Source: Felis catus
Lineage: Eukaryota
DNA: 64,000 bases
Direction of reading: 5' to 3'
Assembly: GCF_018350175.1 (NCBI RefSeq)
Contig: NC_058368.1
Coordinates: 22,074,001-22,138,000, forward strand
Notes under the pieces: generated by a model
Databases searched by the model: none
Told to the model about the DNA's origin: nothing
What the model saw: the letters and a program-made list of their open reading frames with translations, nothing else
Shown: piece by piece, positions 18,701 to 55,028 of the stretch
How the letters are laid out: every line of letters starts with the position of its first letter
How positions within the stretch are numbered: the stretch's first letter is position 1
Position numbers and translations under genes: made by a program

Positions 18701-21700
18701 TAAAATAAACAATGTAATAAGAGGTAAAGCAGGCATTATATCATAATTAAGGGGTCTATCCACCAAGAAGACCTAACAACTGTAAACATTTATGCTCCAA
18801 ATGTGGCAAAACCCAAATATATAAATGAATTAATCACAAAAATAAAGAAACTTACTGATAATACCATAATAGTAGGGGATTCAATGCCGTACTTACAGCA
18901 ATGGACAGATCATCTAAACCAGAAAATCAACAAGAAAACAATGGCTTTGAATGACACACTGGACCAGATGGACTGAACAGATATATTCTGAACATTTCAT
19001 CCTAAAGCAGCAGAATATACATTCCTCTCCAGTGCACATGGAACATCCTCCAGAATAGATCACATACTGGGACACAAATCCGCCATCAACAAGTACTAAA
19101 AGATCAAGATCATACCATGCATATTTTCAGACCACGATGCTATGAAACTCAAAATCAACCACAAGAAAAAATTTGGAAAGGTAACAAATACTTGGAGACT
19201 AAAGGACATCCGACTAAAGAATTAATGGGCTAACCAAGAAGTTAAGGAAGAAATTAAAAAGTACATGGAAGCCAGTGAAAATCATAACACCACAGCCCAA
19301 AACCTCTGCGATGCAGGTTCCCATAAGAGGGAAGTATATAGCAATCCAGACCTTCCTAAAGAAGGAAGAAAGGTCTCAGATACACAACCTAACCTTACAC
19401 CTTAAAGAGCTGGAAAAAGAATAGCAAATAAAACCTGAAACCAGCAGAAGACAGGAAATAATAAAGATTAGAGCAGAAATCAATGCCATCGAAACCAAAA
19501 AACAGTAGAGCAGATCAATGAAACCAGAAGCTGGTTCTTTGAACGAATTAACAAAACTGATAAACCACTAGCCAGTTTGACCAAAAAGAAAAAGCAAAGG
19601 ACCCAAATAAATAAAATCAAGAACGAAAGAGGAGAGATCACAACCAACACAGCAAAATAAAAAAAATAATAATAAGAGAATATTATGAGCAATTATACGC
19701 CAATAAAATGGGCAATCTGGAAGAAATGGACAAATTCCTAGACATATACACTACCAAAACTGAAACAGGAAGAAACAGAGAATTTGAACAGACCTATAAC
19801 CAATAAAGAAATCAAATTAGGAATCAAAAATCTCCCCAAAAAACAAGAGTCCAGGGCCAGATGGCTTTCCAGGGGAATTCTACCAAACATTTAAGGAAGA
19901 GTTAACAAGTACTCTCTTGAAGCTGTCCCAAAGAATAGAAATGGAAGGAAAACTTCCAAACTCTTTCTATGAAGCCAGCATGACCTTGATTCCAAAACCA
20001 GACAGAGACCCCACTAAAAAGGAGAACTATAGACCAATTTCCCTGATGAACATGTATGCAAAAATCCCCAAGAAAATATTAGCCAACTGGATCCAACAAT
20101 ACATTAAAAATTTTTTTCACCATGACCAAGCGGGATTTATACCTGGGATGCAGGGCTGGTTCAATATCCGCAAAACAATCAATGTGATTCATCACATCAA
20201 TAAAAAAAGGACAAGAACCACATGATCCTCTCAATAGATGCAGAGAAAGCATTTGACAAAATACAGCATCCTTTCTTGATAAAAACCCTCAAGAGAGTAG
20301 GGAGAGAAGGATCATACCTCGAGATCATAAAAGCCATATACGAAAGACACAATGCTAACATCATCCTCAATGGGGAAAAACTGAGAGCTTTCCCCCTAAG
20401 GTCAGGAACAAGACCTGACCACCCTCTGACCATGGGGATGTCCACTCTCACCACTGTTATTCAACATAGTATTGGAAGTCTTAGCCTCTGCAAGCAGACA
20501 ACACAAAGAAATAAAAGGCATCCAAATCGGCCAGGAGGAGGTCAAACTTTCACTCTTTGCAGATGACATGATACTCTATATGGAAAACCCAAAAGATTCC
20601 ATGCTGATCCATGAATTCAGCAAAGTGGCAGGATATAAAATCAATGCACAGAAATCGGTTGCATTCCTATACACCAACAATGAAGCAACAGAAAGAGAAA
20701 TCAAGGAATCGATCCCATGTACAATTTCACCAAAACCCATAAAATACCTAGGAATAAATCTAACCAAAGAGGTGAAAAATCTATACACTGAAAACTATAG
20801 AAAGCTTATGAAAGAAATTGAAGAAGACACAAAAACACGGAAAAATTTTCCATGCTCCTGGATAGGAAGAACAAATATTGTTAAAATGTAGCTACTACCC
20901 AAAGCAATCTACATATTGAATGCAATCCCTATCAAAAAAAACACCAGCATTCTTCACAGAGCTAGAACAAACAATCCTAAAATTTGTATGGAACCAGAAA
21001 AGACCCTGAATAGCCAAAGCAATCTTGAAAAAGAAAACCAAAGCAGGAGGCATGACAATCCTCCTGAAGCAAGGATTGCCTCTTGAAGCAAGACTTCAAG
21101 CTGTATTACAAGGCGGTAATCATCAAGACAGTATGGTATTGGCACAAACGCAGACACACAGATCAATGGAACAGAATAGAGAACTGAGAAATGGATCCAC
21201 AAACGTATGGCCAACTAATCTTTGACAAAGCAGGAAAGAATATCCAATGGAATAAAGACAGTCTCTTCAGTAAGTGGTGCTGGGAAAACTGGACAGCAAC
21301 ATGCAGAAAAATGAACCTGGACCACTTTCTTACACCATACCCCCAAACACACTCAAAATGGATGAAAGACCTAAATGTAAGACAGAAAGCCATCAAAATC
21401 CTCCAGGAGAAAGCAGGCAAACACTTCTTTGACCTTGGCCTCAGCAACTTCTTACTTAATGCATCTCCGGAGGCAAGGGAAACAAAAGCAAAAATGAACT
21501 ATTGGGACCTCATCAAAATAAACTCTTCTGCACAGGGAAGGAAACAATCAGCAAAACTAAAAGGCAACCGATGGAATGGGAGAAGATATGTGTAAATGAC
21601 ATATCAAGTAAAGGCTTAGTATCCAAAATCTGTAAAGAACATATCAAACTCAACACCCAAAAAACAAATAATCCAGTGAAGAAATGGGCAAAAGACATGA

Positions 21701-22522
21701 AGAGACACTTCTCCAAAGTAGACATCCAGATGGCCAGCCGGTGCATGAAAAACGTTCAACATCACTCATCATCAGGGAAATACAAATCAAAACCACAATG
21801 AGATACCACCTTACACTTGTCAGAATGGCTGACATTAACAACTCAGGCAACAACAGATGTTGGCAAGGATGTGGAGAAAGGATCTGTTTTGCACTGCTGG
21901 TAGGAATGAAGACTGGTGCAGCCACTCTGGAAAACAGTATGGAGCTTCCTCAAAAAATTAAAAATAGAACCAGCCTACGATCCAGCAATTGCACTACTAG
22001 GTATTTATACAAGGGATACAGGTATGCTGTTTCAAAGGGGCACATGTACCCCAATGTTTATAGCAGCATTATCGACACTAGGTAAAATATGGAAAGAACC
22101 CAAGTGTCCATTGACGGATGAATGGATAAAGAAGATGTGGTGTATATATGTACAATGCAGTATTACTCGGCAATCAAAAAGAATGAAATCCTGCCATTTG
22201 CAACTACGTGGATGGAACTAGAGGGTGTTATGCTAAGCAAAATTACTCAGTCAGAGAAAGACAAATATATGACTTCACTCATATAAGGACTTTAAGACAC
22301 AAAACAGATGAACACAAGGGAAGGAAAGCAAAAATAATATAAAAACAAGGAGGGGGAAAACATAAGAGACAAATATAGAGAACAAACAGAGGTTTACTGG
22401 AGGGGTTGTGGGAGGGGGGATGGGCTAAATGGGTGAGGGGCATTAAGGAATCTACTCCTGAAATCATTGTTGCACTATATGATAACTAACTTGGATGCAA
22501 ATTAAAAAAATACAAAAAAAAA
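15784..22522 (+). mobile_element. Full-length but inactivated felid LINE-1 (copy A): 5'UTR, ORF1 (~17457-18390), ORF2 (~18453-22290), 3'UTR and A tail
   Basis: Starts GGGGGGAGGACCCAAGATGG. ORF1 fragments (NIRIIGVPE, LYPARLSFKIEGEIKSF), endonuclease (TLNVNGLNAPIKR, CCLQETH), RT ([11 protein letters not shown]). Many stops and frameshifts. Confidence 0.96.
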
Positions 22523-22587
22523 CCCCATTTGTTTCAAGATAATACATAACATGTAGTTTAAAAATCAGATATATCAACATACAGCAA

Positions 22588-22812
22588 TTTAAAAAAATTT
22601 TTTTTTAACATTCATTTATTTTTGAGAGAGAGAGAGAGAGAGACAGAGCATTAGCAGGGAATCGGCAGAGCGAGGAGACACAGAACCCAAAGCAGGCTCC
22701 AGGCTCTGAGCCACCAGCACAGAGCCTGACGTGGGGCTCAAACCCACAAACCATGAGATCATGTCCTAAGTTGAAGTTGGATGCTTAATTGACTTAGCCA
22801 CCCAGGTGCCCC
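22588..22812 (-). mobile_element. Can-SINE
   Basis: Reverse-complement head ending ccaggtgcccc, (AG)n. Confidence 0.9.
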
Positions 22813-23778
22813 AACACATAGCCGCTTTTTGCTTCTCCCTCCTCCATTCCTCAGTCCCGTTGTCCAGAGACAACCACTTTCATCTTTTTTATTTGTTCAT
22901 CTGGTATTTACCTCTATATTTTAAATAGCTAGCTTATACTAATCTTTTGGTTTATCAATTTTAAAAATGTTCCTTTGACTTTCTATAGACTAGATGATAA
23001 TTTAGTTTTTTCACTGCCACCATTATTTTATTTTCCTTCCTCGTATCCTCCCGATATACTTTATCACAACTTTTTATTTTATTAAAACTCACATTTAAAT
23101 TATCATGGGTATGTAATTATTATTATTCATTGTTGACCAAAGTAGTATACTATGATTATTTTGTTTTTTGGTAGAAAATATTGTTTTTACTGGAAAATTG
23201 TGTCTTTCAGTTCTGGAAAGGGAAATACAGTTGTATCATAAATGAGAGTAGGCTAAACTCATAACAAACTTTAAACTTTATAAAAGGCCACAAAATGGAG
23301 TGGCTTCACTCCCAGATAAGTTTATTTGTCATATAATAGTGCAGAGCAGATGTTTTGGGTCAGCAGGGTCTTCTGCCTTCCTCACCATGTGGTTCCTAAG
23401 ATCATGTTGTTTACCTTTACCATTTTAGCTCACATGAAGGTAAAAATACATGGAGACAATTTAACCCCGGCCTGGAAATGGCTCGACATTATTCCCATTT
23501 CCATTCCATTTGAGAGCACTTTGTCATTTGGCCCCTTAACTCTTAAGGAAGGAAATCTGAGAGATATTGACTAGTGCCCAGAAAGAAGACAACAGTGGAT
23601 TTTGGTGGACCACTATCATTCTCTGTCACATATTATTTCTTTGAAAATTTCTTCCCTTCCGTTTTCTCTGTTCTCACTTTCTAGATTTCCTATTAGAGTT
23701 TGATTTCCAGGATTGATTTCTTATCTCTTCTGTTTTCCATCTCTTATCTTTTTATGTGTTGGAAGATGTTAATTATAT

Positions 23779-23983
23779 CTTTTTTTTTTTTTAAGTTTAG
23801 TTTATTTTGTGAGAGAGCACACACAGGAGGGGCAGAGAGAGAGGGAGAGAGAAAGGGAATCCTAAGCAGGCTCCGCACTGTGAGCTTGGAGCCCAGTGTA
23901 GGGATTGAACTCATGAACTGTGAGATCATGACTTGAGCTGAAACCAAGACGTTGGATGCCTGACTAAGCCACCCAGGTGCCCC
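23779..23983 (-). mobile_element. Can-SINE
   Basis: Poly-T, purine tract, reverse-complement head. Confidence 0.88.
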
Positions 23984-24815
23984 TAATATATATTTTACTG
24001 AAGATAAACTGTATTGAATTTTCATTTCAACTATAAGAACTCTTTTTTGTTCTCTGATTATTCCTTTTTCTTGTCTCTTTCACTTCCTGGTTCTGTGACC
24101 TTAAGCAAGACACTGCACCTTTTCGAGCCTCAGTTTTCTTGTCTGTAAAATAAAAATAAAATTTGTAATATTACCTTCACGCTAAAATAATGTTGCCTTT
24201 TATGCCATTGACTCTGCATCATCAGAAAGATTTGTGTTTTCAGCCAGGGTTCTGCCACTTACTTACTGTAAGACCTTGGGCAAAGATATCTAACTTCCTT
24301 ATGCATTGGTTTCCTCTTTGCAATATGGAGTCAATAATAATACCTACATCAGTATGTCATTATGAGTCTTCAATGTGATAATGCTTATGAAGCACATCAC
24401 CTAGCACATGGTATTCCATAACTACTAATCTGAGAAATTATTATCCCTATTGCTCTTAAGAGCTGCAATTCCCATAGAAACATATAAACAATTTTAAGCA
24501 AATATAATTAATTAAGGCCATATACAACTGCCAGAATAGTATGATAAAGAAAGTGTTCATTTGCAGCTGGAGTGGATCTGCAAGATTTAATGGACCCACA
24601 AATATGATTTGCACAGCTGGTCATTGATGATAATAAGGCCAAGGTGATCAATTTATACCCACTTCTGGAGATTCTAAAATTTAAGCTCTAAAGCATTTGA
24701 CGGTATCCTGAAGATAATGGGGGAGCCATTGAAGAGTTTTGGAGAGAGGAAGCATATCAGATTTGTGTTTCAGGAAATGAGGATAAATTATTAGTAGTTA
24801 AAAAAGATTAGCTTG

Positions 24816-25029
24816 GGGGCGCCTGGGTGGCTCAGTCGGTTAAGCGTCCGACTTCGGCTCAGGTCATGATCTCGCAGTCTGTGGGTTCGAGCCCCGCCTC
24901 AGGCTCTGTGCTGACAGCTCAGAGCCTGGAGCCTGCTTCCGATTCTGTGTCTCCCTCTCTCTCTGACCTTCCCCCATTCATGCTCTGTCTCTCTCTGTCT
25001 CAAAAATAAACAAACATTAAAAAAAAAAA
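24816..25029 (+). mobile_element. Can-SINE (feline, fairly young)
   Basis: TSD aaaaagattagc. Confidence 0.92.
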
Positions 25030-25318
25030 GATTAGCCTGTAAATAAATGATCCCTTGAGAATGGTGACATGACCTGGAGATCATGTTGGCTCATGGAGAA
25101 GAGAAGTGGTGTGGGTGATCTAAAACAGTATCTTCCATGGTGGGGTCACTGTGTGAAGGCATGCATGCAACTCCATTCTGCAGTGGGTGTTATTTGTCTG
25201 GGGCATCTCCTATAGCTACTGTCACTGATTAACAGTCAGGTGATGGCAAGTACCTTATATTTATTTTGTGCAGAGAGCCATGCCAGATACGAGTGGCTAT
25301 GTTAAAGACCTGGATTTA

Positions 25319-25487
25319 GGGGGCGCCTGGGTGGCTCAGTCGGTTAAGCAGCTCTGTATCTCAGCTCAGGTCGTGATCTCACGGTTTCGTGAGTTTGAGC
25401 CCCACATCGGGCTCTGTGCTGACAGTGCAGAGCCCGCTTGAGATTTTCTCTCTCCTTTTCTTTCTCTCTGCCCCTCCCCTACTTGCA

Positions 25488-25521
<34 letters not shown>

Positions 25522-25555
25522 ATAAATAAACAAACATTAAAAAATTTTTTTAATT
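25319..25555 (+). mobile_element. Can-SINE
   Basis: Full head, CT tract and tail. Flanks ttaaagacctggat / aaagacacggat. Confidence 0.9.
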
Positions 25556-26321
25556 AAAGAAAGACACGGATATGGTATCTTCTTACCAAGGAAATTATCA
25601 ACAATAGAAAACTAATACTGTTAAGCTATAAGAACTCAGATTAATGAAGAAGAAAGGCAAGTCAATACATTATGAAGTATGATGGTGGTTATTTAAAATT
25701 AACTTCATTCCTTTTATAGATAGTAGAATGTATGTAAATTTGATACATATTAAATATGCTTTATGGAAGATATGAAAATTTAGCATAATTGGATATTTAT
25801 TTAGAAAATTAAGTCAGTGAAAAATTGTGAGTTACATTGAAGAAAACAACTTTTTTTCCCATTTCTAGAAATAATAAGACAGAAGATAAACAGCTAATTG
25901 CAAATGCTATTTATTAATAATTTAACTGCTGGAACATATCACAGATCTATAGTGAGCCTTTTATCTGTGTTGTGCACAGGATGCATTAAAGTGTAATTGT
26001 GCACCACGGCTCGCACCCTCCCTGTTCAGTTAGAGAGAGCTGGGAAAAGAATTGGGACAGGGAAGGCAGGCAGGGGAACTAGCCTAAGCTAGATGTGATG
26101 CCCACTTTGCACAGACAAGAGGTGGAGATGAGAAGGAAGGAATCAGGAGGAGACTCACCCATGTCAGGAAAGGATTTGGGAGGCTTAACAGCAGGAAGTT
26201 CCCAAGTAGCTGCAGAGTGGTGGGAGGAGGGAAGGGGGTTTGAGAAGTGATGTTGTGAGTTAGGAGTTGATATTTTTGAGGACACATGTAATGATTGGAA
26301 TCTCTGTTTTTCCTTTAAAAA

Positions 26322-26519
26322 AAATATTTATTTTGAGAGCGAGAGAGACAGGGCACGTGCAAGCGGGGGAGGAGCAGAGAGAGGGAGAGAAAGAATCCTA
26401 ATCGTGCACTGTCAGCGCTGAGCCCATCTTGGGGCTTGAACTCATGAACTGTGAGAGATCACAACCTGAACTGAAATCAGGAGTCAGACACTTAACTGAC
26501 TGAGCCACCCAGGCGCCCC
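26322..26519 (-). mobile_element. Can-SINE
   Basis: TSD-like tggaatctct on both sides. Confidence 0.88.
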
Positions 26520-27207
26520 TGGAATCTCTTTTAATGACATTTTTTAATGACTTTTTACTATTGGCTACTGTTTCTGTGTGACTCGGTAAAACTTGTGGGA
26601 CCTTGGTTTTTTAAAAATTAAGATTACATATGAGATTTACTGAGTATGAATAATCTGTATCTTTATATATCTTCATTATACCTTTAATTTTTTGGCATTA
26701 TTATAATTAACCTTTTTTGGCATTATTATAATTATCCTTTAATTTTTTTCCCTTTATTTGAAAATGTCTTCATGTCCCATTTGATGGACAGTTTTCTGAT
26801 GAATTCAAATGACTATTCTTATACAAATTATTTGATGTAACAAGTCATTCAGTCTATAAACAAATTCTTAAATTGATGTAAGTAAAAAATCTTCTCTATG
26901 TTTGAAATATGAACTTTCTACTCATTACTCACCTGTATTTACCAGTGACCCTATTTTAATGTATAACTTGTAATAGGTAAGTGTATGTCATTTTTTCTTG
27001 TATTTAAGAAAAGGCTTTCATTCATTTTTCTAATATGTGGAGAAAATAATTTTAATTGCTTACTTAAAAAGCCACTTTGTTAATATACAGATTTCTATGA
27101 CTCCATTTTCATGTAGTTATAACATACAATAGAAAAATAGGAATTATTTATTTTTAAGAATAACTTCCTCAAATTTGAGGAATTTGAGTTTTATAAAATG
27201 TCTTTCC

Positions 27208-27412
27208 AGGGGCGTCTGGGTGGCTCAGTCAGTTAAGGGTCCAACTTTGACTCAGGTCATACTCTCATGGTTCTCAGGTTCAAGCCCCACATGGGGCTCT
27301 CTGCTGTGAGCACGGAGCCCACTTCAGATCCTCTGTCCCCCTCCCTCTCCCCTGCTTGTGCACACACTCTTTCTCCATCTCAAAAATAAATAAACATTAA
27401 AAAAAAAAAAAG
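27208..27412 (+). mobile_element. Can-SINE
   Basis: TSD taaaatgtctttcca. Confidence 0.92.
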
Positions 27413-28309
27413 TAAAATGTCTTTCCATTTCTTCTGAAAAGTTAATATTTAGTTTGGTTTATAAGGCTAAAACTGCTTATTCATTCATTTATGAAGGGCC
27501 TATGATAATAACAGTACTAGTAATAATAATACTAACAACAGTAAGTAATAGTAATGGTAGAGGTCAAGATGCTATTTACTAGATGTCAGACCTTGTGGAT
27601 AGTTATTGCTGTTGTTGTTGTTGTTATTGGTTTACCTGTTTTATACATGAGAACACTGCAGCCCGGAGAGGTTAACTAACTTATCCAAAGTCACATAGCT
27701 AGTATGATTTAAACCCAATTAGTCTGGCTCCAGAGTCTGTGCTCTCAGAACACTATCCAGCTTTCCAGTCTTCAAGCAGTCATAGTCTACAATGAGAAGA
27801 GACAACTCATTACAACTCACTGTTGTTACTTTACCAGTATACTCTGTAGGAACTCAGATGAAGGAGCCATAATCTCTGCCTGGGACATCAAGAATGAAGC
27901 AAGTCTTAAAGTAGAAAATTGCCAGAAAGGCACAAAGAGTTGAAAGATCAAGTACTTCCCGTGCAAAGGCACAGAGGCATCAAAATGCATAATGTGTTTG
28001 GAGGATGACAAGATTTCTGGTGTAACTGGAGTTCAGTGTGAATGGGAAGGAGGGATGGGAGATAAAGCTGGAAAGACTGAGAACAGATTATGAAGAGCCT
28101 TCTATGCCCTGAACAAACCAACTATGGAAAATTTGAGGAGGGGACAATCAAGGAAATTTGAATATGGAGTGGGTATTAGTTACTAAAGAATTACTGTTAA
28201 TTTTTAAGCGTGATAATTACATTGTGGTTATGTAAGATTTATCTTTTTGTTCAGTTAAGGATCCTAACAAAATCCAGTTGTTGTATTTGGATGTAATGTC
28301 ACATAGGTC

Positions 28310-28508
28310 TTTTTTTAGTGTTTATTTATTTTTGAGAGAGAGAGAGAGAGAGAGAGAGGCAGAGAGAGAGGGAGACACAGAATCTGAGCAGGCTCCACGC
28401 TCTGAGCTGTCAGCACAGAGCCCAACGTAGGGCTCAAACCCAAAAACCACGAGATCATGACATGAGCCAAAGCCAGACACTTAGCTGACTGAGCCACCTA
28501 GGTGCCCT
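28310..28508 (-). mobile_element. Can-SINE
   Basis: TSD tcacataggtctttt / tcacatgggtctttt. Confidence 0.9.
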
Positions 28509-29554
28509 CACATGGGTCTTTTAAAGTCTCTTTTCATTGACAATAGCGTCTGTTCCTCTTTTTATGTCATTGATTTTTTGAAAACCTGAGTTAATTATCC
28601 TACAGAATTTCCTCCATTCTGGGTTTGTCAGATTGTTTCCTAATGATGTCATTTAACTTGTTCCACTATCTCCTGTATTGATATCCTGGAGGTTATATTT
28701 AAAGACTTGATTAGATTTAGATTAGGTTTTATTTTGGCAATCATATTTTGTAAGTGGTGTTGTGCAGTTCATATTTCATCTCATCCGGAGACAAACATTT
28801 AGTAATGCTAAGATTGAGCAGTGGGTTCAGATGGAGACAGCTTAATCCATTGTAAAGTTCCTCATCAGCCTTACACTTAATTGTTTGACCATTCATTGAT
28901 GAACACTGTATGATTCAGTCATTTCATTAGAGGTTACAGAAAGGTGATATTCTAATCCTGTCATTCCTCGTGCATTTATTGGCTAGAGTAGTTTTAAGGA
29001 GAATAACTTTCTCTCATCTACCACAACAATTTAATTACTTTAAAATACAATTCATACCAGGGAGAGAGAATAAGTGCCTAATTCATTTCCTTCAGTTATC
29101 AATTTAGAGAGAAGTTGTTACCCCAGGAACTAACATTGGCATCTAATGAGTTTCTTTTATCTTTCTCTCTTTCTCTCTCCCTCATCCCCCCCCCCCCATC
29201 CCTTTATTAGCACTATGAACTTCTGTGTAACTTTTTTCCATATGTCTTATGTAGTTGCACACATTTTTCTTGTTGGTGCTCAATCCTCCATTCAAGTTGA
29301 CCATGTCCTTTTTATATTACTCCCATTAGTATGTGAGAGATTCCCTGCTTTCTGGCACAAGATAGACCAGGCTCATCTTGTATATTTCCTAACACAGACT
29401 TGGAATCAGCCATTTCTACCAAAAACTCTTGTTCTTTTTAGTGAGGAATGGTTCTTAGAGACTATAATCTGGATGCTAGGGCTTCTCATTGACATTGGAT
29501 TGTAATTGCTTCTGAGCTTTTTTAGTAGACAGAATTATATCTCATTATTTTCTA

Positions 29555-29821
29555 AATTTTTTTAATGTTTTATTTATTTTTGAGAGAGAGAGAGAGAACA
29601 TGAGTGAGGAGGGGCAGAGAGAGAAGGAGACAGAGAATCCAAAGCAGGCTCCGTACTGTCAGTGCAAAGCCTGATGTGGGGCTCGAACCCATGAACCGTG
29701 AGATCATGACCTGAGCTGAATTATAAATAAATTATCAAATAAATAAATTATCAAAAGCCAATATCCTCAAGGGTAGTAAGGTTGAAATGACACTTAACCG
29801 ACTGAGCCACCCAGGTGCCCC
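29555..29821 (-). mobile_element. Can-SINE carrying a ~70-nt foreign templated insertion (29721-29792)
   Basis: SINE text breaks at ctgagctgaa and resumes at cacttaaccgactgag. TSD tcattatttt. Confidence 0.92.
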
Positions 29822-30151
29822 ATCATTATTTTTAAAGTAAGCAAATATATCTAGATTAAAAGCAAAACTTCTTGCCTATATTGAGGAGGCCAAGTGTTTG
29901 TTGAATGACATTTTATAAAACTTTTCCAACTACTACCTGACATTGTTTGCTTCCAGCAAAAACAAAAGTCATTTTTGCCCTTATGTGATATGTGTTCTTG
30001 AGATATTCTTGCACAAGCTCTTCTAGCCGTTTTTTTTTTTTTTTTGTTTTGTTTTTTTGGTATAATATTTACTGTAGCTCACTTCTAGATGAGACAAATG
30101 CTCTTACATACTAGCTTTTATTAAATTTGAAAGTGATCTTAGATGCTGTGA

Positions 30152-30366
30152 TTTTTTTTTTCAACGTTTTTATTTATTTTTGGGACAGAGAGAGACAGAG
30201 CATGAACGGGGGAGGGGCAGAGAGAGAGGGAGACACAGAATCGGAAACAGGCTCCAGGCTCCGAGCCATCAGCCCAGAGCCTGACGCGGGGCTCGAACTC
30301 ACGGACCGCGAGATCGTGACCTGGCTGAAGTCGGACACCTAACCGACTGTGCCACCCAGGCGCCCC
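30152..30366 (-). mobile_element. Young SINEC_Fc-type SINE
   Basis: TSD gatgctgtgatttttt. Confidence 0.95.
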
Positions 30367-43059: not shown

Positions 43060-43229
43060 AATTGAAATTAAAATTTTTAAAAACTTACCACAAAGTTTGA
43101 TAAATTTAATGTCCCACAAAATCTTCTTCAGTTTCATGACAGAATAAGTTAAACTTACTGTTTAGTACAAACAATAAGCCCTTCATATAAAAGAGACTAA
43201 TTATTATGACTTTAATGTGAACTAGATGC

Positions 43230-43477: not shown

Positions 43478-44407
43478 ATGTTCTTACTTTCCACTTTCTT
43501 AATTCCCAGTTGGTAATTATCATCTGTGTGCACTGCTTGCCCTCATTGCATACGTGCACACACACCTCACCCTCAACCCTCTGAGGACCAGGACTGTTCC
43601 ACCCTCCTCAGCCCCTGGACTCTCCTGCTTCAGTTCTCTGTTGGGCTCACTCCTCCCACCTCAGTGGTCCCTGAAGCATGTCCTTGCCTGGTGGGAGAAT
43701 GACGCTGAGCTTCCCCCACCTGTGGCACTCTATGTGAAACTAAAGGGCCCAGTAGTGGAGAGTAGTTGACAGGCACACTGGGAAACGGGGGCCTTGAACA
43801 CCAGCATCCTCCAGCTTCTGGGGACAGGGAAGTCCTCCAGAGAGGCCAGCTGGGATTAGATTAGCATGGCCATTGTGCAGCAAAAGTTGCCCCGTTTCTC
43901 TGTGTCCGCTATGAACTTGACACTTTGATTCTTTATGGGGTACCAAGTGGAGCTCTAAGTATATTTAATCTTTTCCTAAATTATTCTTGCACTCGTAGCT
44001 ACCAGCAAGGCTACCTGAACAAATGACATGAAATGTGTTATTTTGCTACCCACTTAATAGATGAATTAGATCTTTTATTCAAAAGGGTTTATTTGAGAGG
44101 ACTCAAATACTCCATTTTTCTACTCAATTTTTAATTTTCAGAACTAAAGTAGCAAAGTACATCTGTTGTTTCACTTGACCTCCGTATCCCGCTGTGTCTT
44201 TATGTGTAAAGGATGGTGAACTGGGAACCTCCGGGTGGACAGTGTGATCAGCATGGCGTTCAGTACATTGATGCAGAGCACAGCAGCTGGGCCGTGCTGG
44301 CCTAGTGGGCTGGCAATTTACTTTTGAAGCAAGAGAGTAATAAGCAAACCTAAAGCAGAGGAACCGCTGCTGGTGTTACACCCTAATATTTGTTTTCTTT
44401 TCATTAG

Positions 44408-44473
44408 ATTTTTGAAGACTATGAGAAATTGCTTCAGTCTGAGAATTATGTGACTAAGAGACAATCTTTAAAG
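44408..44473 (+). CDS. CAB39L: CAB39L coding exon (66 nt; IFEDYEKLLQSENYVTKRQSLK)
   Basis: Acceptor ttttcattag, donor GTAATA, phase 0-0. Contains the conserved MO25 motif NYVTKRQSLK. Confidence 0.96.
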
Positions 44474-44887
44474 GTAATATCAAATTGCTTAAGTTAGTCT
44501 GTGTTGGTTGATGTCTTGTTAGTAAATGATGGCCTCTTAGTGGACAAGTACATATGGGGAAAATTAAAGTGTCCCCCCCACTTTATTTTTGTAACTTGAA
44601 AAGTATGCTTCATGTTATGACTGTACTTTGTAGCAAAACAGTGTTGTGCCCTGCCTCGACTACTTTTTGGAAGTAATAACATAAAAATAGTAAGTGCATG
44701 ATAAAGTAGAATTTCGTATATTTCAGCTCAGAAAGAAAGTCAAACCTAAGTTAATTTAAATAAAACCACAGTTCTCTCCTAGGGGATATTTTCTGGAGAT
44801 GAAAAGAAATCACTCTTAGCTTGAAACTAAGATCTGAATTACTGTTTATAAGGAAGAAACAGCAAAGTTCTCCTGTAGTTCTCTCTC

Positions 44888-45133
44888 TTTTTTTTTTTTT
44901 TATGTTTATTTATTATTTTTGAGAGAGAGAAACAGAGTGTGAGCTGGGGAGGGGCAGAGAGAGAGAGGGAGACACAGAATCCGAAGCAGGCTTCAGGTGC
45001 TAAGCTGTCAGCACAGAGCCCAATGCAGGGCTTGAACTCACAAACCCAGGGCTTGAACTCACAAACCGTGAGCTCAAGATCTGAGCCAAAGTCCGACGCT
45101 TAACCGCTTAACTGACTGAGCCACGTGGACACC
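44888..45133 (-). mobile_element. Can-SINE with an internal ~20-bp tandem duplication
   Basis: agggcttgaactcacaaacc x2. TSD ctgtagttctct / ctgcagttctct. Confidence 0.88.
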
Positions 45134-45297
45134 ACTTCTGCAGTTCTCTTTCAGTGTATCTTGAAACAGAAACCAAAATGACCGTATTTTTCTTGTACAT
45201 CTATATAATGTAGACTTCGTAGGGTATTTTTCAGAGAAGGGGGGAAGAAAAGGTGACACTGACAAAATATAACACATCAAATGCAAGATTAAAGTTT

Positions 45298-45512
45298 GGG
45301 GCGCCTGGGTGGCTCAGTCGGTTAAGAGTCCGACTTCGGCTCAGGTCACGATCTCGCGGTCCGTGAGTTCGAGCCCCGCGTCAGGCTCTGGGCTGATGGC
45401 TCAGAGCCTGGAGCCTGCTTCTGATTCCGTGTCTCCCTCTCTCTCTGCCCCTCCCCCGTTCATGCTCTGTCTCTCTCTGTCTCAAAAATAAATAAATGTT
45501 AAAAAAAAAAAA
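45298..45512 (+). mobile_element. Feline Can-SINE (young)
   Basis: TSD ttaaagttt. Confidence 0.92.
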
Positions 45513-46285
45513 TTTAAAGTTTCCCTCTAAGTTTATGACATTACTGGAGAAATTCTGAATATATTTTCAATTGAGAGGGAAGACAACTTTCTACTATGAA
45601 ATGGTGCTTATAGAACTGAAACGTTATGCAGCTCGTGGGAAGCACTTACCCCCAGATTTGTAACATATTTTTCTAAAGATTTTTTTTTTAACTGCATTGC
45701 ATTACTGGGTTTCATTCTCTGAGCATTCTTGTTAGTGTTTTACTACAGGTCATTTTTAGAGGTACCTCCACCATTTAACATGTTCAAATTGTATTTCCAA
45801 CAAAGATGCTGAAATATGAAACATGCTTATTCTTTAAGAGTTAAAAGAATAATCTTTAATAAAGTGGCTGTAATAAACAGATATGTGAGAAGACTACCTG
45901 ATCAAGAACACAAAACTGCTTTTCTGAAAATTGCCAGTATTACACCAAAACAGACTCTGGAAAGAGGTCAAAAGATGATATCGCTAGCTGGAAGAGAAAG
46001 TAAAGTCAATGCTCAATTATCTGCAAATAGCTTTAGTTGGATGAATTATTGGGGGTGATGAGAGGGGTGAAAGGGCACTCCATTTGGCCAACAAATATTT
46101 ATGTGCTCCTATTCCTGACATTACGGTGACAGCCAAGAACAAAATGAAGTCGCATCTCAATGGACCTTACATTCTGCCAAGGAGAACAGACAATTGATAA
46201 ATAAACAGATAAATATGTAATTTTCAGGTGATTTTAGAACAGTTATGCAGGGCACAAGGGCAGGAAGTGACGACTGAAGGGATAA

Positions 46286-46322
<37 letters not shown>

Positions 46323-48280
46323 CAGTGGCATTTACTATTGGAGAGCATATCACCTATGAAATACCTGTGCAAGTTTGCTTTCCCTCATGAGGCAGGAAGC
46401 CCAGCAGAGTACAGCCGCCATGTAGTCGGTGAGTGGCTTTCCCTCCTTCAGTGAAACAGTGCCTGGAGGCAGCCATTTGGCCAGGAGGAGGTGGGGCTGC
46501 CCCTGTGGGAGTGGAACATGAGTTAGAGCTGTGTCCCTACCCTTCAGATCTCACTCAGATATTCCAAAGGATGTTTTTGGCAGATAATAATTGGCTGGTT
46601 TTGTCAAGCAGTTTGTATGATTTTGGGGCTTACTAAATATCACCTGTATTATGTTTACATGTTGGGATGACATTAATAGAACAATGTGTTTATTTCTAAA
46701 TACTGAATACAGTTTTAACTAAAGTGATGACATAAGCCCATTTTGTATCACATTTTTGTCAGTTCATTTTACCCATGATTTTGCCTTAGCTGTGACCTGC
46801 CTTCCCCTATATTTGTGCCCTTGCTGCTCCAATGGTACCCATTGATGGAGGGGTCATTGGGATATTTTCAGCCAGTCATTCAGCACCTTTTTATTGAGTT
46901 TCCCCTTGCATGGAAACCCGTACAAGCTGGTCTGTGTAGAAAATATACCATGGTTTCACTGCTCTTTTTCTGGAGCCTGGACTGTTGAGATGGAGCTTCC
47001 GACAAAGGCAGTGACATTATGCCATGCTCTCCCAAGTCCAGAAAGCTTGTTAAAGCAGCTGAAGATAAGGCTGCATCCTGGTGGCTTACCTGTGTAGTAC
47101 CTAAAGAATAGAATTCCCTATTTGCTAAGGCTCCACAACGACGGCCAAAACAGAGGAGCTGCTGCTCTGTATTATAAGAGATCATCGCCCTCGGAGGGAA
47201 GTAGAAATTGAATAGGAACAGAGACAACAGTGCTCTAAGGGGCCAGCATGTAAGAAATAGCTCATACATTTTCCAAATCCTTCCTCTTTTTAGTGAGAAT
47301 CTATGAGACCCTGAACCAAAGTAGCAACATTGGTATGAACTAAGGTGATGGGACTAAAGTGGGATCCAGAAAGCTGAGGGTCATAGACTTTAGAGTTTAT
47401 CTTTGTGCCATTTTCAGCAGTGACAGGAATTCATGATAGAAATTTTTCTGTGATCGACGATCTCTAGAGCCTTAGGTGAAGTTATAAAGCTAACAGTTGT
47501 TCATCCAAACATCTGGGCCTTCTTCCTGTTTTTTCCGTCATGCTACCTTATCATCTCCTACCCATGGGCCCATTGCCCTCATTCTGTTCTCAAGCCCCAC
47601 CTTGTCCTGTCCCCTTGTTAATAGACATAAAGTGGTTAGAGCAGAGCCTAGCTCATGTTAAGGAGTAGATATGTGTTCAATAAAATAAAAATAAATTTTA
47701 TAAGTAAATATTCCTCTCCTGTCCTCAGTGCTCAATCTCTAGAAGGTGGTCTATCCTAAATAAATAATTGAGACTAGGGTATGAATTAGACTGATACCCT
47801 AGTAGATTGCATTTGCATTTGAAAACAGAAGCAGTGGATATGTGATTGGTAATACAAATCTGGTGGGTAGCACAGGGGAGTGAGAAGGTTCATTCTTCAC
47901 TGCTGTCTACTGCTCCCCCTCCCCCCCTCCACTGTTCTGCCCCCTTCTCACGTGGCTCTGAGGCTAGACACCTCTACTCTATTTCCAGCGACACAGGCAA
48001 GGAGCAACCGAGTTTGTATCTGGTATTGAAACTCTCCCTTTTCCACTTGATTGTGCTTCCTACTTTTTCACAGATGCCCCAGTCCATGCAGAAGGCCTCT
48101 TTCCTGTTCTTTATTAATCCAGCCAGATGTACTACATTGGCTGCTACTCTTGCCTAAAATCTTTTATAGTGGAGTATCTCATAAATGTTTTGTTTACAGT
48201 GTGATAAAACTGAGCACTGGTTGGACACCAAAAAAACCAAACCAAAACAAAACGAAAACTAGCAAAAGACATATAAAGCA

Positions 48281-48415
48281 GGGTGCCTGGGTGGCTCACG
48301 TGGTTAAATGTCTGACTCTTGATTCCGGCTCAGGTCATGATCTCACAGTTGTGAGTTTGAGCCCTGCATTGGGCTCTGCCCTAAGTGTGGAGCCTGCTTA
48401 AGATTCTCTCTCTTC
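48281..48415 (+). mobile_element. Can-SINE 5' half (split by L1 copy B)
   Basis: gggtgcctgggtggctca head. Preceded by aaaagacatataaagc, which recurs with one mismatch at 55083-55098. Confidence 0.9.
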
Positions 48416-50893
48416 TTGCTGCACACGTAGAAAACTGATTTGAGGATTAACACAACAATCTGCACAACCTGAACCACAGAACTCAGCAGGTACGCAGCGC
48501 AGAGAGGTGAACTGAGGGAGAGAGAAGCCGCAGAGGGCAGGGAGGTGTTTTTGCTTGTGGAGAGAGGACGGAGACGGGATGGGGGTGGGGTGGGGGGTAT
48601 TATGGAAAAAGCACTCTCCCCCAAAAGCAGTTGGAGAAAAAGTGGGAAAATGGAAACGGCCACAGGGACTGAACTAAAAAGGGAGAAAGGAGAAAGGAGA
48701 GGGTTTAAATTCCATTAAGACTCTCTAAACAGGGGGGAGCGCAGACTCTGAAATTCTGCAGCTCAATACCTGGCAGTGCTCTGGTGAGAAGGGCGAATCC
48801 TCAGGAGCAGAGTGAAGTCAGGGGTCTTCGGGCCACACGGGGAAAGGTGGTTCCCCTGCTGGGGAGGCTGTGCGGCCACCCGGTCCCAGCAGACCCCAGA
48901 GGACAAACACATTCGCTACTCCAGGAACAAGGTCGTTAAAGGTGAAGCCTGGTGCCAGAGGTGTGTTGTGATTTTCCATAATCCCTGAAACGCTGCTGCT
49001 ACACTATTTCGTGAACTTTTTCTGGGGCGGGCTGGCACCTGGCCGCAGTCTCGGGGCACCAGCAGCAGCACAATTCCGCGAAAAGTTCCTGGGTGCAGCC
49101 GGCACCCAGCCATTGCTCGGTGAGATCCTCCCCCAGAGGGTCTGAGCCGGTTAAAAGCCGCAGTCCCTCAGAAGTGAGGAGTCGGGAAACACAGCTGATC
49201 TGAGATAAAACTCAGGAGGGAGGTGCCGCCTGGCAGCCTGAAGGCTTGGTCACAGACAGTGTAAAAGCAGGGAGTGCTCCAGCTTCTGGAGACAAAGGAC
49301 AGGTGCGCGATTGCTGGTCGAGTGGAGCAGAGTTCCGATTTGGAGATTCGGTTCCCGCGTGACGCCATTTTTGCCACTCCCGCGCATGGGCTTACGCACC
49401 AACAGGCACCACAACACTCCACACCAGGAAGCTAAGCAGCGCCATCTAGTGGAGAATGGAGCTGTTACACTAAGCCCCATCCAACTGGGCCAACCTCGCT
49501 GTTCAGAAACACAAGTCTCCACCTGCTTAGATTATGGACTATAAAGTGCTTCATAGTTTGATTGCTAGGGTAAAATGAAGTAATTTGAATCCCATTTCAG
49601 TCTGTTCGCTGGCCCATCTATAAAATTTTCTTTTTTTCCTTTTTCTTCTTTTTCGTTTCTTTTCTTTTTCTTGAATAAAGAGAAAAATATTTTTATTTTC
49701 AATTTTTATTAAAAATATTTTTCTTTAAAATTTGTTTGTATTATATTTTATATTTTTTTTTGTAAAATTTTCAAATTCTACTTTACTTCCATCATTTCAT
49801 TTTATTCTATTTCAGTGTACTCATTTTTTCAGATTTTCAAATGTTTTCCTTTTTTTCTTTTTCCCTTTTTTCTCTAATCTATCAAGCTCCTTTCAACAAC
49901 CAGATAAAAACACACCTAGGATCAAACATCATTTATTGGACTTGGGTGTGTGTGTTGTTTTTAATTTTTTAATTTTAATTTTTTTGCCTTATTAATTCCT
50001 TTTCTTCCTTCAAAATGACAAAACAAAGGAATTCACCCCAAAGGAAAGAGCAGGAAGAAACAACAGCCAGAGACTTAATCAAGAGAGATACAAGCAAGAT
50101 GTCTGAACCAGAATTTAGAATCACGATAATAAGAATACTAGCTGGGGTCGAAAATAGATTAGAATCCCTTTCTATGAAGATAAAAGAAGTAAAAGCTAGT
50201 CAGGATGAAATAAAAAATGCTATAACTGAGTTATAGCAATCTCGAATGGATGCCACAGTGGCAAAAATGGATGAGGCAGAGCAGCCAATCAGTGATATAG
50301 AGAACAAACTTATGGAGACTAATGAAGGAGAAAAAAAGAGGGAGACTAAGTCAAAGAGCACAATTTAAGAATGAGAGATTTCAGTGACTCATTAAAAGGA
50401 ACAACATCAGAATCATAGGGGTCCCAGATGAAGAGAGAGAAAAAGGGGTAAAGGGTTATGTGAGCAAATCATAGTGGAAAACTTTACTAACCTGGAGAAA
50501 AACACAGACATCAAAATCCAGGAAGCACAGAGGACTCCCATAAGATTCAACAGAAACTGACCATCAACAAGACATATCATAGTCAAATTCACAAATTACT
50601 CAGGCAAGGAAAGAATCATGAAAGCAGCAAGGGAAAAAAAGTTCTTAACTTACAAGGGAATACAGATCAGGTTTGCAGCAGAAACTTGGCAGGCCAGAAA
50701 GGAGTGGGAGGATATAGTCAATGTGCTGAATTGGAAAAATATGCAGCCAAGAATTCTTTATGCAGCAAGGCTGTCATTTAAAATAGAAGGAGAGATTAGA
50801 AGTTTCCCAGACAAAAATTAAAGGAGTTCATGCCCACTAAACCAACGCTGCAAGAGATTTTAAGGAGGACTCTCTGAGGTGAGAAAAGATAAG

Positions 50894-50933
<40 letters not shown>

Positions 50934-53900
50934 ACCAAAAGCAACAAATTTTAGAAAGGACCAGAGAACACCACCAGAAACTCCAACTCTATAAGAAACA
51001 TAATTGCAATAAACTTATATCTTTCAGTATTCACTCTAAACGTCAATGGACTAAATACTCCCATCAAAAGATACATGGTAACAGAATGGATAAAAAAACA
51101 AGAGCCATCAATATGCTGGAGACCCTCTTTAGACCTAAAGACACCTTTATATTGAAATTAAGGGAATGGAGAACCATCTATCATGCTAATGGTCGACAAA
51201 AGAAAGCCAGAGTAGCCATACTTATATCAGACAATCTAGACTTACAAATAAAGGCTGACAAGAGATGAAGAAGGGTATTCTATCATATTAAGGGGTCTAT
51301 CCACCAAGAAGACCTAATAATTGTAAACATTTATGCTCCAAATGTGGGAAAACCCAAATATATAAATCAATCACAAATACAAAGAAACTTATTGATAATA
51401 ATACCGTAATAGTAGGGGACTTCAAAACCCCGATGACAGCAAAGGACAGATCATCTAAACCAGAAAATCAACAAGAAAACAATGGCTTTGAATGATACAC
51501 TGGACCAGATAGACTTGACAGATATATTCAGAACATTTCATCCTAAAGCAGAATATGCATTCTTCTCCAGTGCACATGGAACATCCTCCAGAATAGATCA
51601 CATACTGGGACACAAATCAACCCTCAAGTGGTACAAAAAGATTGAGATTATAACGTGCATATTTTCAAACCCCAATGCTATGAGACTCAAAATCAACCAC
51701 AAGAAAAAATTTGGAAAGGTAACAAATACTTGGAGACTAAAGGACATCCGACTAAAGAATTAATGGGCTAACCAAGAAGTTAAGGAAGAAATTAAAAAGT
51801 ACATGGAAGCCAGTGAAAATCATAACACCACAGCCTCAAACCTCTGCGATGCAGGTTCCCATAAGAGGGAAGTACATAGCAATCCAGACCCTCCTAAAGA
51901 AGGAAGAAAGGTCTCAGAAACACAACCTAACCTTACACCTTAAAGAGCTGGAAAAAGAATAGCAAATAAAACCCGAAACCAGAAGAAGACAGGAAATAAT
52001 AAAGATTAGAGCAGAAATCAATGCCATCGAAACCAAAAAACAGTAGAGCAGATCAATGAAACCAGAAGCTGGTTCTTTGAACGAATTAACAAAACTGATA
52101 AACCACTAGCCAGTTTGACCAAAAAGAAAAAGGAAAGGACCCAAATAAATAAAATCAAGAACAAAAGAGGAGAGATCACAACCAACACAGCAAAATAAAA
52201 AAATAATAAGAGAATATTATGAGCAATTATACACCAATAAAATGGGCAATCTGGAAGAAATGGACAAATTCCTAGAAACATATACACTACCAAAACTGAA
52301 ACAGGAAGAAACAGAGAATTTGAACAGACCCATAACCAGTAAAGAAATCGAATTAGGAATCAAAAATCTCCCCAAAAAACAAGAGTCCAGGGCCAGATGG
52401 CTTTCCAGGGGAATTCTACCAAACATTTAAGGAAGAGTTAACATGTACTCTCTTGAAGCTGTCCCAAAGAATAGAAATGGAAGGAAAACTTCCAAACTCT
52501 TTCTATGAAGCCAGCATGACCTTGATTCCAAAACCAGACAAAGACCCCACTAAAAAGGAGAACTATAGACCAATTTCCCTGATGAACATGTATGCAAAAA
52601 TCCTCAAGAAAATATTAGCCAACCGGATCCAGCAATACATTAAAATTTTTTTTCACCATGACCAAGCGGGATTTATACCTGGGATGCAGGGCTGGTTCAA
52701 TATCCGCAAAACAATCAATGTGATTCATCACATCAATAAAAAAAGGACAAGAACCATATGATCCTCTCAATAGATGCAGAGAAAGCATTTGACAAAATAT
52801 AGCATCCTTTCTTGATAAAAACCCTCAAGAGAGTAGGGAGAGAAGGATCATACCTCGAGGTCATAAAAGCCATATATGAAAGACCCAATGCTAATATCAT
52901 CCTCAATGGGGAAAAACTGAGAGCTTTCCCCCTAAGGTCAGGAACAAGATGGGGATGTCCACTCTCACCACTGTTATTCAATATAGTATTGGAAGTCTTA
53001 GCCTCTGCAATCAGACAACACAAAGAAATAAAAGGCATCCAAATCGGCCAGGAGGAGGTCAAACTTTCACTCTTTGCAGATGACATGATACTCTATATGG
53101 AAAACCCAAAAGATTCCATGCTGATCCATGAATTCAGCAAAGTGGCAGGATATAAAATCAATGTACAGAAATCGGTTGCATTCCTATACACCAACAATGA
53201 AGCAACAGAAAGAGAAATCAAGGAATCGATCCCATGTACAATTTCACCAAAACCCATAAAATACCTAGGAATAAATCTAACCAAAGAGGTGAAAAATCTA
53301 TACACTGAAAACTATAGAAAGCTTATGAAAGAAATTGAAGAAGACACAAAAACACGGAAAAATTTTCCATGCTCCTGGATAGGAAGAACAAATATTGTTA
53401 AAATGTAGCTACTACCCAAAGCAATCTACATATTGAATGCAATCCCTATCAAAAAAACACCAGCATTCTTCACAGAGCTAGAACAAACAATCCTAAAATT
53501 TGTATGGAACCAGAAAAGACCCTGAATAGCCAAAGCAATCTTGAAAAAGAAAACCAAAGCAGGAGGCATGACAATCCTCCTGAAGCAAGGATTGCCTCTT
53601 GAAGCAAGACTTCAAGCTGTATTACAAGGCAGTAATCATCAAGACAGTATGGTATTGGCACAAACGCAGACACACAGATCAATGGGACAGAATAGAGAAC
53701 TGAGAAATGGACCCACAAACGTATGGCCAACTAATCTTTGACAAAGCAGGAAAGAATATCCAATGGAATAAAGACAGTCTCTTCAGTAAGTGGTGCTGGG
53801 AAAACTGGACAGCAACATGCAGAAAAATGAACCTGGACCACTTTCTTACACCATACCCCCAAACACACTCAAAATGGATGAAAGACCTAAATGTAAGACA

Positions 53901-55028
53901 GGAAGCCATCAAAATCCTCCAGGAGAAAGCAGGCAAACACCTCTTTGACCTTGGCCTCAGCAACTTCTTACTTAATGCATCTCCGGAGGCAAGGGAAACA
54001 AAAGCAAAAATGAACTATTGGGACCTCATCAAAATAAAAATCTTCTGCACAGGGAAGGAAACAATCAGCAAAACTAAAAGGCAACCGATGGAATGAGAGA
54101 AGATATTTGTAAACGACATATCAGGTAAAGGGTTAGTATCCAAAATCTATAAAGAACGTATCAAACTCAACACCCAAAAAACAAATAATCCAGTGAAGAA
54201 ATGGGCAAAAGACATGAAGAGACACTTCTCCAAAGAAGACATCCAAATGGCCAACCAACACATGAAAAAAATGTTCAACATCACTCATCATCAGGGAAAT
54301 ACAAATCAAAACCACAATGAGATACCACCTGACACCTGTCAGAATGGCTAACATTAACAACTCAGGCAACAACAGATGTTGGCAAGGATGTGGAGAAAGG
54401 ATCTCTTTTGCACTGCTAGTAGGAGTGCAAACTGGTGCAGCCACTCTGGAAAACAGTACGGAGGTTCCTCAAAAAATTAAAAAATAGAATGACCCTACAA
54501 CCCAGCAATTGCACTACTAGGTATTTATCCAAGGGATATAGGTATGCTGTTTCGAAGGGATACATGCACCCCAATGTTTATAGCAGCGCTATCAACAATA
54601 GCCAAAGTATGGAAAGAGGCCTAATGTCCATTGGTGGATGAATGGATAAAGAAGATGGGGTATATATACAATGGAGTATTACTCAGTGATCAAAAAGAAT
54701 GAAATCCTGCCATTTGCAACTATGTGGATGGAATTAGAGGGTATTATGCTAAGCGAAATTAGTCAGAGAAAGGCAAATATCATATGACTTCACTCATATG
54801 AGGACTTTAAGACACAAAACAGATGAACATAAGGGAAGGGAAGAAAAATAATGCCGAAACAGGAAGGGGGACAAAACCTAAGAGAGTCTTTAATATGGAG
54901 AATAAACAGAGGGTTACTGGAGGGTTTGTGGGAGGGGGGATGGGCTAAATGGGTAAGGGGCATTAAGGAATCTACTGAAATCATTGTTGCACGATATGCT
55001 AACTAACTTGGATGTAAATTAAAAAGAT
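48416..55028 (+). mobile_element. Near-full-length inactivated felid LINE-1 (copy B), ~90 nt 5'-truncated, inserted inside a Can-SINE
   Basis: Same ORF1/ORF2 motifs (ORF1 ATG 50015, RT FADDM in ORF 52812-53408). 15-bp TSD agattctctctcttc at 48401-48415 and 55029-55043. Confidence 0.96.

Follow-up and report, generated by a model that had tools for sequence, protein, structure and literature searches.

Probable non-allelic gene conversion between two decayed L1 retrotransposons 32.5 kb apart in the genome of Felis catus

The genome of Felis catus (NCBI RefSeq assembly GCF_018350175.1) harbors, on contig NC_058368.1, two decayed copies of the retrotransposon L1 (LINE-1), here termed A and B, which lie 32.5 kb apart on the same strand. 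They raise the question of how two elements that were inserted separately, and that differ at 13.4% of the sites over most of their length, came to carry the same stop codons, frameshifts and complex insertions and deletions (indels) within an internal stretch of about 2.4 kb, where they are nearly identical. The stretch of DNA analyzed, referred to as the window, comprises 64,000 nucleotides (positions 22,074,001 to 22,138,000 of the forward strand) and contains 0 N; its contig, C1 in the numbering used here, belongs to a near-complete assembly of 2.43 Gb in 71 contigs. Coordinates are those of the window, and all features of the two elements described below are on the + strand. The best reading of this single assembly, with a probability of about 0.88, is that the shared tract arose by non-allelic gene conversion between A and B.

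Copy A (15783–22512) is a full-length but decayed element consisting of a long 5′ untranslated region and two open reading frames (ORFs), ORF1 and ORF2, the latter with endonuclease and reverse transcriptase, all of them with stops and frameshifts. Its 5′ end was placed at ~15783–15788 by comparison with eight full-length family members, the starts of which match A 15786–15805 with one exception at 15902. Pfam analysis of A identified Transposase_22 at 17837–18082 (1.3e-16), Tnp_22_dsRBD at 18139–18324 (2.5e-22) and Exo_endo_phos at 18480–18704 (3.9e-10), as well as RVT_1 at 19989–20762, which is split into three pieces in three frames (4e-8, 2e-6, and 4e-13). Copy B (48416–55028) is of the same family and orientation, with a 5′ end ~90 bp shorter than that of A, and the 3′ ends of both copies are A-rich. 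With ORF1 domains, endonuclease, reverse transcriptase and an A-rich tail, A and B are L1 non-LTR retrotransposons (LTR, long terminal repeat). Self-BLAST aligned A 15873–22512 with B 48419–55029 at 88.5% identity over 6741 columns, both on the + strand; the two copies are colinear from end to end, with the 32.5-kb interval between them present.

An initial reading made from the letters alone (the sequence-only reading) had claimed that A and B are separate insertions and do not belong to a segmental duplication, and this is borne out by the DNA around them. The DNA beyond the two elements showed 36–47% identity in a global MAFFT alignment, i.e., it is unrelated, and in the self-BLAST, taken as a test for a duplicated segment, matches elsewhere were to short interspersed elements (SINEs) only. 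The insertion site of B is the CT-rich tail of a SINE, and B is bordered by its own exact target-site duplication, AGATTCTCTCTCTTC, the 15 bp upstream (48401–48415) being identical at 15/15 positions to the 15 bp downstream (55029–55043). This sequence has two matches in the whole window, with 0 expected from 100 shuffles. The corresponding search at A gave low-complexity A/T matches only, and no convincing target-site duplication of A was found by it.

The identity of the two elements is not uniform along their length. A profile of the global MAFFT alignment in 100-column windows showed 61–92% identity 5′ of A ~19113, 94–100% from ~19113 to ~21700, and 75–94% from there to the 3′ end. The near-identical tract occupies 19147–21578 in A (2432 bp) and 51685–54095 in B (2411 bp); it begins just past the endonuclease domain, spans the whole reverse-transcriptase domain and ends in the C-terminal part of ORF2, its 3′ edge lying 934 bp before the 3′ end of the element. 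Inside the tract, 34 substitutions were counted at 2408 aligned sites (1.41%), along with 5 indel events (27 gap columns), in close agreement with the ~35 sites and ~98.5% identity that the sequence-only reading had given by eye. Outside it, 549 of 4099 sites are substituted (13.4%; Fisher p = 3e-75 for inside versus outside), with a divergence of 14.6% 5′ and 9.2% 3′ of the tract. Within A 20495–21578, only 7 substitutions were found in 1083 sites, corresponding to 99.35% identity.

The list of differences also bears out the coordinates of the tract and its abrupt left edge just before ACTCAAAATCAACC (19147; right end 21578). On the left, the final difference preceding the tract is at A19146/B51684 and the following one at 19298; the tract must begin in the 58-bp interval 19147–19204, which runs from the last A/B difference at 19146 to the first change separating A and B from the family at 19205. 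On the right, a clean run extends to 21578 and differences resume at 21579, 21590, 21597 and onward, the end falling in the 16 bp of 21574–21589, which are bounded by the final change of the dense run common to both copies (21573) and by the earliest differences, B-specific at 21579 and A-specific at 21590. The 66 bp abutting the left end of the tract (19081–19146) contain 16 substitutions, a number reached by 70 of the 1701 gap-free windows outside the tract (top 4%). A left end at such a mismatch-rich patch would fit an exchange halting where homology fails, though this fit is suggestive only.

All the lesions that had been listed for the two copies from the sequence alone, namely three stops, frameshifts, a 15-bp deletion and a 28-bp insertion, are present in both. 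The in-frame TAA is found at 19223–19225 (B 51761); a TAG at 19422–19424 (B 51960) is in a frame that differs from that of the TAA owing to a shared frameshift near 19312; and a further TAG is present at 20889–20891 (B 53406). A 1-bp deletion after HHINKK (A ~20205) is common to A and B. The 15-bp in-frame deletion has its junction (ENPKDS^MLIHEF) at A 20602/20603, within 20589–20618 (B 53106–53135), and is carried by 0 of 28 panel copies. The 28-bp insertion at 21063–21090 (B 53579–53606) is missing from the 8 aligned panel copies listed. Altogether, ~100 changes in the tract are common to A and B and set them apart from 28 other family members. When the 2.43-Gb assembly was scanned with up to 3 mismatches allowed, the 28-bp insertion and the 30-bp junction of the 15-bp deletion each gave two matches, A and B only; the lesions are hence not a trait of a subfamily. 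Exact-pattern scans of metagenome contigs for copies of host origin, with an A-specific flank motif and with the 28-bp insertion, gave 0 matches each. Among sequencing runs, 24 from 14 organisms held 0.40–0.51 of the words sampled, shares that by themselves are no evidence.

The relatives of the two copies were sought in the assembly with four pieces of A and B, 40 of the ~7,500–9,600 candidates being scored in each search. In the tract, B is 98–99% identical to A, and the best third copy reached 92% for A 19147–20410 (40 of 9067 candidates scored) and 89% for A 20500–21500 (40 of 8512 candidates scored). For the sequence just 5′ of the tract, no relative of more than 88% identity was found for A or for B among the candidates scored, and B was missing from the 40 scored matches of A. 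As no relative among the candidates scored exceeds 88% for the 5′ flank of either copy, neither of them is a recent retrocopy of a surviving source.

These results bear on the possibility that A and B descend from a common defective source mobilized in trans, or from a subfamily that already had the lesions. The two copies do belong to the same family, and some of their 3′-end variants also occur in a subset of other copies. A common source should, however, have left the elements alike as a whole, yet their 5′ and 3′ parts differ by the 14.6% and 9.2% given above; the complex lesions are confined to A and B in the entire assembly, with the next-best copies at 89–92% among the candidates scored. 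Moreover, the segment 16450–17899 is without an excess of sites at which A and B alone share a state (A+B-only sites), as it has 1 such site and 81 of 91 pairs of copies have at least as many. Descent from a common source is therefore hardly credible.

To follow the changes in each copy, every site was polarized by the state that most of 8 full-length copies carry. Changes common to A and B affect 1.26% of the sites in the 5′ part, where 5.81% carry changes of A only and 6.5% changes of B only. In the tract, the corresponding values are 4.04%, 0.63%, and 0.63%, which implies that the private decay of one copy became common to both and that little has been added since. Substitutions in the tract that are present in A and B and in 0 of 21 other copies number 47, the next-highest of the 253 pairs having 5.

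The 34 differences within the tract comprise 25 transitions and 9 transversions, 7 of them being in CpG context, and the private changes are divided into 15 in A and 15 in B. They look like ordinary natural mutations. An assembly or polishing artefact, by which the sequence of one copy was pasted or polished onto the other, is very improbable, as tracts produced in that way would not be expected to differ by 34 substitutions of a natural spectrum and 5 indels, spread evenly between the copies. In addition, the flanking L1 sequence is 12–15% diverged, so that long reads could be assigned to the right copy; no N is present in the window; and a second pair of copies with the same pattern was found on another contig (described below). 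One difference within the tract is a 19-bp insertion present in A only (20413–20431), which contains an internal CTGACC repeat and is missing from B and from the 12 panel copies listed. It is located mid-tract and adjoins two changes common to A and B, and it either postdates the transfer or represents a loop that escaped conversion.

The position of A and B within their family was evaluated with panel alignments of 22 copies over A 17900–20600 and of 28 copies over A 19000–22512. Just 5′ of the tract (17900–19146), the divergence between A and B is 12.0%, similar to the mean divergence of A (11.4%) and of B (11.7%) from the 22 panel copies. In the tract, it falls to 2.0% (5′ half) and 0.65% (3′ half), the divergence from the panel being 8–9%. 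The tract divergence of A and B (1.41%) is the lowest of 276 pairs, followed by 5.45%, with a median of 8.2%; in the 3′ part, A and B are outside the five lowest of 435 pairs. FastTree analysis of the tract placed A and B as sisters with a support of 1.0 and a patristic distance of 0.018, and they were not sisters in the trees of 15900–17899 and 21916–22512. The interpretation of the tract as converted DNA, already put forward in the sequence-only reading, is thus supported by the mosaic identity of the two elements, the private lesions that they share, the uniqueness of these lesions in the assembly and the independent flanks.

Several points weigh against this interpretation. The contrast between the inside and the outside of the tract is not perfectly clean, since long branches also unite A and B in the trees of 17900–19146 (support 0.96, patristic distance 0.18) and of 21579–21915 (support 0.93, patristic distance 0.088), and conversion needs the extra assumption of older or patchy exchange to accommodate this. 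Sequences diverged by more than 10% are poor substrates for mammalian homologous repair, and a single transfer of 2.4 kb at such divergence would be somewhat surprising if the region had not been kept similar by earlier exchanges. All of the evidence, finally, is the sequence of one assembly.

The grouping outside the tract may reflect a localized halo of A+B-only sites. The left halo (18040–19047) consists of the sites 18040, 18107, 18166, 18512, 18607, and 19047, in surroundings that are 12% diverged; these 6 sites in 17900–19146, 5 of which are transversions, compare with a mean of 0.47 and a next-highest value of 3 among 276 pairs. The right halo (21608–21902) consists of the sites 21608, 21702, and 21902 together with a shared 2-bp deletion at 21880; these 3 sites in 21579–21915 rank first among 435 pairs (mean 0.10, next-highest 2), and the same segment has 6 B-only and 15 A-only changes. 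Further out, no excess of A+B-only sites was observed in 16450–17899 (the 1 site mentioned above) or in 21916–22512. Such a localized halo is not what a shared source gives. The sequence-only reading had proposed earlier, longer conversion episodes on the basis of the 2-bp deletion. The excess of A+B-only sites on both sides of the tract lends partial support to such episodes; the deletion itself was rejected as proof of an older event, as it is recurrent, with 30 copies having it and 2366 lacking it. Another carrier of this deletion, the copy L063, has 0 of the 6 left-halo sites, 0 of the 3 right-halo sites and 3 of the 47 tract sites.

The left flank also holds sites that B shares with a single other family member. 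Copy L060 (G000:C2:10527643-10535543) has 21 otherwise unique sites in common with B, located at A-coordinates 16604–18866 (5′ untranslated region, ORF1 and endonuclease), and 5 in common with A. Only 1 site unique to B and L060 occurs in the unconverted right flank of B, and the tract contains 5 sites at which A, B and L060 agree. As the affinity of B to L060 is missing in the right flank, these 5 tract sites decide nothing on the direction of transfer, and the counts of unique sites shared with single panel members likewise had no power to show that direction. The sharing suggests either a sub-lineage whose signal is confined to the 5′ two-fifths of the element or a family with a mosaic history. 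The A+B-only sites of the left flank are interleaved with the sites found only in B and L060, an arrangement that a simple tree cannot give and that hence calls for patchy exchange.

A variant of the conversion reading is that A and B have exchanged sequence recurrently, possibly with a GC bias (concerted evolution), perhaps at a recurrent break site, the latest exchange being recent. Its evidence includes the halo on both sides of the tract, with 6 sites on the left and 3 sites and an indel on the right, each excess ranking first among 276 and 435 pairs, respectively; the interleaving in the left flank; the higher divergence of the 5′ half of the tract (2.0%) than of the 3′ half (0.65%); and a lean of the shared tract changes toward GC. 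For AT-to-GC versus GC-to-AT, the changes that A and B share in the tract number 49:27, compared with 357:452 for private changes in 8 other copies over that region (p = 0.0007). With a 28-copy control, the same contrast was weaker (52:30 versus 470:425, p = 0.064). By tract half, the ratio was 30:9 versus 270:234 in the 5′ half (p = 0.004) and 22:21 versus 200:191 in the 3′ half, the halves having been split post hoc, and a GC-biased footprint is possible in the 5′ half. Against recurrent exchange, however, the GC bias varies with the control used, does not extend to the 3′ half and was seen in halves chosen after the data had been inspected. The halo sites are also few; as a rough estimate for copies 6% diverged, ~1.5 parallel hits are expected, and other pairs average 0.47. 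Lastly, a change point within the tract has p = 0.074. Recurrent exchange is accordingly a possible though doubtful variant. Two separate events inside the tract were considered as well and rejected, as 27 differences in 1348 positions versus 7 in 1084 gave Fisher p = 0.005, which became p = 0.074, not significant, in a breakpoint-adjusted permutation.

Under the non-allelic gene conversion favored here, A and B would be two independent, ancient insertions of one L1 family, each of which decayed separately. Much later, a DNA break may have occurred in ORF2 of one copy, with the other copy, located on the same chromosome at a distance of 32.5 kb, serving as the template. Non-crossover homologous repair between the non-allelic copies, with synthesis-dependent strand annealing as the probable pathway, would then have overwritten ~2.4 kb of the recipient with the already broken sequence of the donor, and it is for this reason that both copies would carry the same stops, frameshifts and indels. 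Since the transfer, ~0.6% of new changes would have accumulated per copy in the tract. The exchange may have spread for as long as homology lasted; the reverse-transcriptase region is where the family members resemble each other most, the median pairwise divergence of the family being 7.5–8.8% in the tract region versus 9.7% further 3′. The outcome is a non-crossover one, as both elements and the interval between them are intact; this points to repair without crossover, and non-reciprocity itself is not visible after the event.

This break-repair course, with a single main event or a few, also allows a tentative dating. A private change of 0.63% in the tract, compared with 5.8–6.5% in the 5′ part, would place the last transfer in roughly the last tenth of the lifetime of the elements. 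The mammalian neutral rate is 1–2.2e-9 per site per year. If this rate applies, the transfer may have taken place a few million years ago and the insertion of the elements tens of millions of years ago.

Both A and B could in principle have been converted by a third L1 that has since been deleted or is absent from the assembly. This would require two events with identical boundaries, and among the candidates scored none exceeds 92% identity; such a history is very unlikely.

A second pair of neighboring copies was found that resembles A and B. Copies L040 (G000:C22:47446367-47450568) and L064 (G000:C22:47407400-47411600) belong to the same L1 family and are located on the same strand of contig C22, 39 kb apart. 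They are 0–3% diverged from A-coordinates at or before 17900 to ~19100, i.e., over the 3′ end of ORF1 and the endonuclease, and 5–14% diverged beyond, which gives a conversion-like tract of at least 1.2 kb. When 300 pairs of family members were compared over A 17900–20600, a 400-bp window with a divergence of 1.5% or less was present in only two, A-B (32.5 kb) and L040-L064 (39 kb); the other 298 pairs, the members of which lie on separate contigs or at distances of more than 300 kb, showed at least 4%. As low-divergence windows are shared only by the two pairs of neighbors, this observation supports an exchange that depends on proximity. The pair L040-L064 was chosen since both copies scored high against one query, a route that favors converted pairs and hence says nothing on frequency. 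In a third pair of neighbors, L065 and L066, 43 kb apart, 91% identity was observed over 1.2 kb, without a clear tract.

The same comparison bears on a route through RNA and complementary DNA (cDNA), in which the transcript of a dead copy is reverse-transcribed by an active L1 and the cDNA recombines with the other copy. Conversion by cDNA is documented for the yeast elements Ty and Tf2 (PMC6598467), and A and B are on the same strand, as this route would allow. The tract is, however, internal and ends 934 bp before the 3′ end, where L1 reverse transcription starts, and strong tracts occur only between physical neighbors (2 of 300 pairs, 32–39 kb apart), which argues for proximity-dependent repair from DNA to DNA. 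The cDNA route is highly unlikely.

Non-allelic conversion among copies of transposable elements is well described, as in the account of Alu elements, LTRs and, via cDNA, Ty/Tf2 given in section 4 of the review PMC6598467, which cites Kass 1995, Roy 2000, and Aleshin and Zhi 2010 for Alu conversion. In Alu conversion, as in A and B, an internal stretch is swapped between loci, leaving a mosaic element and a conflict between the gene tree and the insertion history; the difference is one of scale, since Alus are 300 bp long and the L1s are 6.7 kb, with a tract of 2.4 kb and a background divergence of ~13% in the present case. According to the same section, the rate of conversion depends on distance and identity and is raised below 10 kb (PMC6598467), whereas A and B are 32.5 kb apart. 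Similar to the course proposed for A and B, a break in one L1 was patched from other L1s, in cis or in trans, in mouse cells (Tremblay et al., 2000, as cited in PMC3055243 and PMC1920257); in that system, as cited, the break was induced, the cells were cultured and the tracts included some as short as 13 bp, whereas a fixed germline event is deduced from sequence here. Ectopic conversion has also been described among the LTRs of human endogenous retroviruses (Trombetta et al., 2016; PMC4921805; summarized in PMC6598467). There too, by that account, dead retroelements both give and receive sequence, and derived alleles are passed on in clusters; the evidence is polymorphism among individuals, as opposed to a single assembly in the present work.

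Deletions associated with L1–L1 recombination (Han et al., cited in PMC3055243) likewise have as substrates two L1s in direct orientation on one chromosome; as cited, they result from a crossover that removes the DNA in between, unlike the non-crossover outcome with an intact interval at the present locus. One L1 locus has been attributed to intra-chromosomal gene conversion (PMC1920257). A systematic study of L1–L1 conversion between neighbors was not found in searches of open-access full text. There are older reports of L1 conversion in human and mouse. The reviews consulted, among them PMC6598467 (section 4), treat Alu and LTR conversion in detail and L1 conversion little.

The tract common to A and B adds one more case to a known process, non-allelic gene conversion, and does not represent a new kind of event. 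It would be a clean textbook case, sharply bounded, marked by private complex lesions and free of a competing source, and it would mean that L1 copies that have long been dead still exchange kilobase-sized stretches across at least 30 kb. Tracts of this kind give an old element a locally young appearance and lend unrelated insertions the look of sisters, and they can mislead divergence-based dating, the calling of subfamilies and searches for recent duplications. A broader proposal, that A and B are an instance of a frequent, recurrent and GC-biased exchange among neighboring dead L1s tens of kilobases apart in this genome, with more than 10% background divergence and possible recurrent breaks in ORF2, is speculative and rather unlikely. 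If it were true, neighboring old L1s would evolve partly in concert, divergence-based ages and subfamily assignments of L1s would be systematically biased wherever other L1s are close, and ectopic repair activity would have dead L1s as its markers. In view of the second pair, the halo and the possible GC bias, a genome-wide, distance-resolved survey of L1 pairs would be of value.

Some further observations were made in the L1 family and in the window. A third member of the family of A and B is present in the window as a 3′-end fragment (62401–63144), at a distance of ~7.4 kb on the downstream side of B; its identity is 86.2% with B and 83.0% with A, and self-BLAST found no high-identity patch between it and either copy. 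The segment corresponding to A 17075–17297, just upstream of ORF1, is repeated two to three times in tandem in family members, among them L037, L039, L040, and L048, which shows that the copy number of this ~220-bp unit varies in the L1 family.

Among the SINEs of the window, the copies at 3263–3487 and 13664–13889, separated by 10.4 kb, show 99.1% identity across 226 bp (1 mismatch and 1 gap), and the other SINE pairs are mostly 90–97% identical; this pair could belong to a very young subfamily or be another local conversion. Two tandem SINE dimers, at 3057–3704 and 14646–15115, match each other in inverted orientation at 86–88% over ~450 bp and form an inverted repeat with its arms ~11 kb apart.

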